Shown here piece by piece: positions 8,500 through 8,638 of a stretch of 11,140 bases of DNA. Source of the stretch: a virus (Monodnaviria; Loebvirae; Hofneiviricota; Faserviricetes; Tubulavirales); the IMG/VR virus record IMGVR_UViG_2667527953_000001. The stretch is one strand, 5' to 3'. Below the pieces are notes generated by a model, which made no database searches, had not been told where the DNA came from, and saw nothing but the letters and a program-made list of their open reading frames with translations. The translations under genes were made by a program, and so were the position numbers. How positions within the stretch are numbered: the first letter of the stretch is position 1; each line of letters begins with the position of its first letter.

Positions 8500-8638
8500 C
8501 CAAATGCTTTACCTGCGTGCAATTGTGCAAACTTGCAAAAATAATACACAAAAAAACCAGATGCACAAGTGCAATTGTGCACAAATGCAATTTTGCTATG
8601 TTGTATTAAACTAAGCCAAAAGAACAGGAGAACAAAAA
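8500..8638. promoter_or_regulatory. Divergent promoter/operator region between the replication gene and the RHH regulator gene
   Basis: Two copies of GTGCAATTGTGCA (8517-8529 and 8569-8581) plus extra TGCACAA/TGCAA repeats. Candidate minus-strand promoter (-35 TTGTGC at 8568..8563, -10 TATTAT at 8546..8541) and plus-strand promoter (-35 TTGTGC 8575-8580, -10 TATGTT 8597-8602) overlap the repeats. Confidence 0.5.

Follow-up and report, generated by a model that had tools for sequence, protein, structure and literature searches.

Which protein reads a set of short, regularly spaced repeats lying between two divergent genes of a filamentous phage, and what would its binding control? The question is raised by an 11,140-base-pair (bp) stretch of DNA, the IMG/VR record IMGVR_UViG_2667527953_000001 (hereafter the window), the best reading of which is a temperate filamentous prophage of E. 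coli. The gene rep, coding for a replication endonuclease of the Phage_GPA family (666 amino acids, aa; 6491-8491, minus strand), and the gene of a 62-aa putative regulator (8639-8827, plus strand; ATG at 8639, ribosome-binding site AGGAG at 8626-8630) diverge from an intergenic region of 147 bp. We consider it quite likely, on comparative grounds, that this is an immunity control region similar to that governed by the repressor RstR in the Vibrio cholerae phage CTXphi, the repeats being the predicted operators of the 62-aa protein.

The position of the repeats relative to rep depends on the start codon of this gene. Extended mechanically, the open reading frame (ORF) of rep reaches a TTG at 8590, a start which the earlier note had deemed unlikely, and correctly so. 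In a 99.7% identical E. coli prophage annotated by PGAP (NCBI), rep starts at the codon corresponding to GTG 8491-8489 of the window. The same codon is ATG in the related loci L002 (88% identical) and L004, and GTG in L003. Start codons of rep in relatives are each preceded by a G-rich ribosome-binding site, which in the window is GGGGGG on the coding strand (8496-8501, plus-strand numbering), and the similarity among variants of the locus, described below as exchangeable cassettes, ends 10 bp or less from the rep start codon. With rep starting at 8491, the repeats are intergenic and non-coding, and lie between the two divergent genes.

The array is real and non-random. Its unit is a 4-bp box, TGCA, repeated in an exact 8-bp register in two clusters. 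Cluster 1 (8518-8537) contains three boxes, at 8518, 8526 and 8534; cluster 2 (8562-8605) contains six, TGCA at 8562, 8570, 8578 and 8586, TGCT at 8594 and TGTA at 8602, the last two being degenerate but still in register. The core of each cluster is an exact copy of the 13-mer GTGCAATTGTGCA, which spans two neighbouring TGCA boxes; its only two occurrences on the plus strand are at 8517-8529 and 8569-8581, 52 bp apart from start to start. Both copies had been pointed out before, together with further TGCACAA/TGCAA iterations, which are real and, set on the 8-bp register, more regular than described. The spacers (ATTG, AACT, AAAA, CAAG, ATTG, CAAA, ATTT) are rich in A and T (22/28 bases, 79% A+T). 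The pattern TGCANNNNTGCA (TGCAN4TGCA) occurs five times in the window against 0.42 expected, all five matches fall in 8518-8589, and this number was reached by none of 200 dinucleotide shuffles. In the autocorrelation of 4-mers over 8492-8638, the strongest lags are 8 and 16, with 13 matches each; the shuffle mean at lag 8 is 1.6, and the observed lag-8 count was reached in 0/300 dinucleotide-preserving shuffles. An independent call by TRF, a 16-bp tandem repeat, covers 8562-8596. As TGCA is its own reverse complement, cluster 2 can equally be read as an imperfect palindrome with its centre at TGTGCACA (8576-8583).

The boxes are conserved. Loci encoding homologues of the 62-aa protein were collected by scanning genome and viral-contig collections, and seven, with regulators 73-100% identical, were aligned (two from E. 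coli, one from Photorhabdus, one from Providencia, and three IMG/VR contigs). The alignment of the seven loci runs column by column through both clusters, with boxes at about -121/-113/-105 and -77/-69/-61/-53/-37 from the regulator ATG. The sixth box of cluster 2, degenerate in the window, is TGCA in five of the six other loci (L002, L007, L008, L019, L020), while L021 lacks it. Column identity averages 0.88 over the box cores and 0.78 over the 4-bp spacers, compared with 0.53 in the stretch from rep to cluster 1, 0.66 in the one separating the two clusters, and 0.63 from the candidate -10 element to the ATG. Substitutions fall mainly at spacer positions 6-8 of each 8-mer, as in L002, where TGCAATTG is changed to TGCAAATG or TGCAAGTG. 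In relatives the clusters are 52-54 bp apart. The two-cluster layout is kept also in more distant loci, with different boxes, GTGA/TCAC in Pasteurellaceae, GCAT(GC) in CTXphi-env and in the Vibrio phage VAI2.

The boxes are inherited with the regulator. A putative immunity cassette spanning 8492-8910, and made up of the intergenic predicted operators and the regulator gene, together with some 85 bp that follow it, is replaced wholesale in E. coli prophages otherwise 98-99% identical to the window. L003 and the window are 98.0% identical over 6401-8500 and 98.9% identical over 8902-9172, with no similarity in between. The same pattern is found in L004 (98% over rep, 99% over the right flank), with breakpoints at 8490 and 8911. 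The cassette of L003 encodes a 62-aa regulator of another family, phrog_5219 (2831-3016), and its intergenic region carries CT[TA]AG boxes 8 bp apart, again in two clusters (2717/2725 and 2758/2766/2774/2782). The cassette of L004 encodes a regulator of the phrog_2503 family, 45% identical to that of the window, with CATG boxes in 8-bp register (2931/2939/2947). Boxes thus travel with the small regulator allele, and not with Rep.

The 62-aa protein matches phrog_2503 (E 1e-28), a family labelled 'unknown function' and of small size, 72 clusters at 50% identity matching it (E <= 0.001) among 1.84 billion representatives. A tblastn search of a phage collection found 43-45% identity (E 4e-8 to 5e-8) to the rstR genes of CTXphi IB1617 and pre-CTX 17449, whose products also belong to phrog_2503; the IB1617 gene is annotated 'environmental RstR; transcriptional repressor'. 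The RstR-like genes of Vibrio phages VAI1 and VAI2 are also homologous, and the same search gave no match to the El Tor or classical rstR alleles. The structural search of BFVD with Foldseek returned as best match the same 'environmental' RstR of IB1617. By sequence, then, the regulator is a homologue of a protein annotated as an RstR allele, and the analogy with CTXphi RstR proposed in the earlier note gains a basis in homology, on top of which the cassette is exchangeable. Alleles of rstR repress only the cognate ig-2 promoter, and the 192-bp rstR-6 was found to repress its own ig-2 (PMC11509585). The termini of rstR-6 (AF452586), the primer-encoded portions only (MKKKYTSLRVS... and ...DLKR), fit the phrog_2503 family; the primer sequence was not found in viral contigs.

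The layout of the window is similar to that of rstR/ig-2, where a small repressor gene diverges from the replication gene and operators, here predicted, are located in the short intergenic region. In CTXphi, too, repressor and intergenic region are swapped as an allele-specific cassette between near-identical phages (PMC11509585). Like CTXphi, the window phage is integrated at dif and forms tandem arrays. The two systems differ in the replication protein, RstA of CTXphi being 359 aa long and the Phage_GPA protein of the window 666, as in the type of repressor. El Tor and classical RstR are helix-turn-helix proteins of about 112 aa, which bind long operators as tetramers, unlike the 62-aa, probably ParG-like regulator of the window. 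In the library of papers searched, an operator of short RstR alleles or of their E. coli relatives was looked for, as was a link between RstR and the ribbon-helix-helix fold, and neither was found.

Two more small proteins deserve mention here. The 'major intergenic region' of phage If1 (L016, U02303), a classical, supposedly non-temperate coliphage, contains at 1486-1674 an unannotated 63-aa ORF, clearly a phrog_2503 homologue of the window regulator (E 5e-27; 41% identity by tblastn), on the strand opposite to the annotated genes shown (gene 4, ORF348). An IS200-like Y1 transposase ORF (Pfam Y1_Tnp, E 1e-27) adjoins it at 965-1408. The phrog_5219 regulator of L003 has the N-terminus MPTKHIND, resembling MATKHIKD, the primer-encoded N-terminus of RstR-calc, and CTX-calc was not recovered by tblastn of the L003 regulator against the phage collection. 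This second family, weakly related to the first, may resemble RstR-calc, as judged from no more than ten primer-encoded N-terminal residues, and appears to use the same box geometry. If the link is true, inoviruses of E. coli and Vibrio would draw on the same two small-repressor families.

What kind of protein could read such an array? The AF2 model of the monomer (pLDDT 82) features an extended segment at residues 1-9, a helix at 10-27, a turn at G28 and a second helix at 33-61; the strand of the ribbon would form only in the dimer. G28 is invariant in the family, and I6 and I8 form an alternating hydrophobic pattern. Among solved structures, the broader family profiles A4 and A5 both rank ParG (1P94) first, with weak E values (0.029 and 0.054). 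Alignment to ParG by hhalign gave probabilities of 89% and 80% over 41-42 columns, covering the strand and both helices, and ParG is the most recurrent sub-threshold Pfam match (7 of 51 members). No similarity to the omega repressor was found by hhalign. The regulator is a probable ParG-like ribbon-helix-helix protein, an assignment suggested by profiles and lying below curated thresholds; to that extent the ribbon-helix-helix regulator of the earlier note is probable. Compared to ParG, the window family features about six extra residues in helix A. The N-terminal strand residues vary among family members (RKSIGIS, RKNLGVP, RKSYNVP, DTTVRIN).

A known counterpart of the array is the operator of ParG itself. 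OF, on plasmid TP228, consists of eight 4-bp boxes at regular 4-bp AT-rich spacers, each bound by one dimer, the whole being coated cooperatively (PMC3130281). The geometry of the window array, 4-bp boxes and 4-bp AT-rich spacers, is identical to that of OF/parH. The boxes differ, being palindromic (TGCA) in the window and asymmetric (ACTC) for ParG, as does their number, 3 + 6 in two clusters in the window versus 8 + 12 for ParG. No match to a ParF/ParA-type partner was found among the ten longest ORFs of the window scanned, which argues for transcription control in a phage, not plasmid partition. MetJ, also a ribbon-helix-helix dimer, binds to 2-5 tandem 8-bp units, each built around a palindromic core, adjacent dimers cooperating. 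The palindromic cores of the window share the 8-bp register of met boxes; in contrast, the proteins have no sequence relationship, and MetJ needs S-adenosylmethionine and controls a host metabolic regulon, not a phage switch. Arc and Mnt of P22 immI and omega of pSM19035 are likewise small ribbon-helix-helix repressors, which bind cooperatively to short repeated sub-sites and autoregulate. The Arc operator is a single 21-bp sequence with two half-sites, and omega uses 7-bp heptads, as opposed to the 8-bp register found here.

Among other candidate readers, a host factor or nucleoid protein, such as a CytR-like reader of TGCAA half-sites or a regulator of the SlyA/RovA type, fares best, and is nevertheless unlikely. 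TGCAA/GTTGCATT resembles CytR half-sites, and the region is AT-rich. RovA has been reported to bind the putative rep promoter of the Yersinia phage Ypfphi (PMC4266046). Yet each cassette has boxes of its own (TGCA, CATG, CT[TA]AG, GCATGC, GTGA/TCAC) on a common 8-bp register and layout, and different boxes on one register fit allele-specific phage repressors, not one shared host factor. Moreover, wherever the regulator is conserved, in hosts as unlike as E. coli, Photorhabdus and Providencia, so are the boxes. LexA, which co-represses the rstA promoter of CTXphi, was considered as a partner and rejected, the intergenic region having, unlike CTXphi, no match to the LexA box. By analogy with RovA at the Ypfphi rep promoter (PMC4266046), host inputs may be layered on phage control.

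It is more unlikely still that the repeats are iterons bound by the Rep endonuclease, or that they belong to the plus-strand origin. The idea is a natural one, HUH-type initiators of filamentous phages being known to bind repeats near the nick site, and the repeats lying directly upstream of rep. It was rejected on the evidence of the cassette swap: in L003 and L004, where rep is 98% identical at the DNA level, the intergenic DNA is unrelated and has no TGCA arrays, and Rep is therefore essentially unchanged while the boxes have been replaced. Two further prophages, L005 and L006, keep the same rep and have no such region. In CTXphi the origin resides in ig-1, and not in the rstR-rstA intergenic region.

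Promoters were sought by our own position-weight-matrix scan of sigma-70-like sites, complemented by alignment. The candidate rep promoter (8541-8568, minus strand) has a predicted -35 element TTGTGC at 8568-8563, a 16-nucleotide (nt) spacer and a predicted -10 element TATTAT at 8546-8541. A first candidate for the regulator (8575-8602, plus strand) consists of TTGTGC at 8575-8580, a 16-nt spacer and TATGTT at 8597-8602; an alternative one (8585-8612, plus strand), with ATGCAA at 8585-8590 and TAAACT at 8607-8612, aligns with TACAAT/TATAAT in relatives. The TTGTGC hexamers on both strands coincide with box sequences of cluster 2. Downstream of the candidate rep -10, after about 4 bp, comes cluster 1, located on the expected start site and leader of rep. 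The overlap of the repeats with the -35 elements of both divergent promoters and with the rep leader, predicted earlier, is thus reproduced by the best, albeit weak, candidates of the matrix scan.

In the switch we propose, ribbon-helix-helix dimers of the 62-aa protein would bind the TGCA boxes, probably with a single dimer on each box and cooperative contacts from one dimer to the next. Dimers on cluster 2 (8562-8605) would block the back-to-back -35 elements of both promoters and extend into the -10 of the regulator, and dimers on cluster 1 (8518-8537) would block initiation of rep transcription, or promoter escape, at the start site and leader. Occupancy of the boxes would silence rep, and hence rolling-circle replication and phage production, and would also feed back negatively on the promoter of the regulator. 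The two exact 13-mer cores might in addition cooperate by DNA looping, conceivable because these best-conserved two-box cores are 52 bp, or about five helical turns, apart. As boxes and regulator are exchanged together, the cassette would define the type of superinfection immunity, as rstR/ig-2 does in CTXphi.

That the repeats act in the RNA, as a hairpin in the leader or as an insulator resembling a terminator, is highly improbable. A pattern scan flags a terminator-like hairpin followed by a T-run on the minus strand at 8582-8561, on which the reading is founded. The minus-strand RNA from 8600 to 8485, however, folds no better than shuffled sequences (-26.7 vs. -27.2 kcal/mol, z 0.16), and an RNA structure was rejected on this ground. 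The hairpin is a by-product of the palindromic boxes and the T-run is the promoter spacer, and conservation falls on the box cores and on the 8-bp register, not on pairing partners. The weakest reading, that the repeats are a chance or low-complexity feature of AT-rich intergenic DNA, in which short repeats are frequent, is effectively refuted by the shuffles, none of the 200 and 300 matching the observed counts, and by box positions conserved across diverged loci.

A number of points nonetheless weigh against the operator reading. Promoter candidates are weak: the rep candidate is the best on the minus strand with a score of 8.6, the best scores per 171-nt tile in the window have a mean of 6.1 (standard deviation 2.4), and the candidates hence stand about one standard deviation above background. 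A stricter consensus scan (at least 9/12) found no site in the intergenic region, so that promoter positions depend on the weaker matrix scan and on the alignment. The variation of the inter-cluster distance, 52-54 bp, weakens any strict argument for helical phasing or looping. The residues predicted to face DNA barely differ between the TGCA group and the Pasteurellaceae group, and specificity of ribbon for box does not seem simple. As to the fold, no Pfam family was found above cutoff, either for the regulator or for the sets of 16 and 51 family members scanned; Foldseek returned nothing significant from PDB, as is expected for a two-helix monomer; and the narrow profile A1 did not find ParG among solved structures, where its sole match, KRI1, was discarded as spurious. 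Finally, the cassette swap, by moving regulator and intergenic DNA together, excludes Rep as the reader of the boxes, and does not formally exclude a host factor.

Variation in the gene content of the locus was also observed. An additional 82-aa ORF, absent in the window and with no Pfam match, resides between the operator region and rep in many relatives, among them L004 (2685-2933), L007 and the Pasteurellaceae loci; in these phages the predicted operator boxes would control the small gene first. In L005 and L006 (E. coli AST85 and AF34; 2698-3663), where rep is 98% identical at the DNA level, the regulator cassette is absent and a gene for an IS110-family DEDD transposase (annotated 'RNA-guided transposase') abuts rep. 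The element is found near hcxB/ybiJ, not at dif, and looks like an alternative integration module set on the same phage backbone.

The rest of the window is that of a filamentous (inovirus) prophage, with ORFs for the Phage_GPA-family replication endonuclease, a Zot-like assembly ATPase, a coat-protein-A-like adsorption protein and a secretin. A 99.7% identical copy resides in the chromosome of E. coli strain 100416, in a tandem array adjoining hipA, a gene of the dif/terminus region. No match of the whole phage to cultured phages was found by megablast, and the nearest Rep proteins, at most 33% identical, are those of fs2 and VFJ and the RstA-like protein of the CTXphi record DQ288668, which is from strain VCE232 (PMC11509585, Table S3).

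A 98-nt imperfect hairpin is found at 9078-9175; its folding energy as single-stranded DNA is -36.8 kcal/mol (z = -8.6), a value equalled by 0/200 shuffles. Its arms (AGTGCGCACAA...TTATGTATAAA and TTTTCAACATAA...TTATGCGCACT) resemble the XerC and XerD arms of E. coli dif. The hairpin is probably a folded attP(+) of the CTXphi style, a reading that fits a prophage adjoining hipA in tandem copies. Its GC-rich tip (9109-9142), followed by T-runs, may double as a bidirectional terminator.

Large tandem repeats are located between the secretin and zot genes, a 339-bp unit being repeated 4.2 times at 1031-2443. The same unit is found again, in at least two copies, at 10474-11140, and continues past the window end; a 145-bp unit is repeated three times at 536-977. 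The near-identical prophage of strain 100416 has only about 760 bp in place of the large tandem repeats. More than 4,000 enterobacterial plasmids, most of them mobilizable, carry a segment to which the first 70-75 nt of the 339-bp unit are 82-89% identical and which resembles the primosome-assembly-site region of ColE1/pBR322. The unit is a candidate for an amplified minus-strand origin. Repeats of 39, 78 and 30 nt, rich in Gly, Ser and Pro, are found within the coat-protein-A-like gene (4540-4791), and are flexible linkers typical of adsorption proteins of filamentous phages.

How far does the model extend beyond the window? We see an even chance that phrog_2503 is an unrecognised family of ParG-like ribbon-helix-helix immunity repressors of inoviruses, covering E. 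coli, Photorhabdus, Providencia, Pasteurellaceae, a subset of Vibrio rstR alleles and the antisense ORF of If1, which would read 4-bp boxes on an 8-bp register, ribbon and box co-diversifying (TGCA, CATG, GCATGC, GTGA/TCAC) into heteroimmunity groups. In kind, the locus is most likely an ordinary immunity switch, a module of the RstR type, not previously described for this phage family, and the general picture of temperate phage control would remain unchanged even if all this is true. Pathogenic E. coli and Vibrio commonly carry filamentous prophages integrated at dif, whose immunity type decides on co-residence and superinfection. The locus offers a concrete and readily testable operator model, in which TGCA boxes in 8-bp register form clusters of 3 + 6, and for which the naturally swapped cassettes are usable as specificity controls. 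If the model holds true, phrog_2503 would gain a function, and phage immunity repressors would be linked to the array-coating ribbon-helix-helix proteins of the ParG type.

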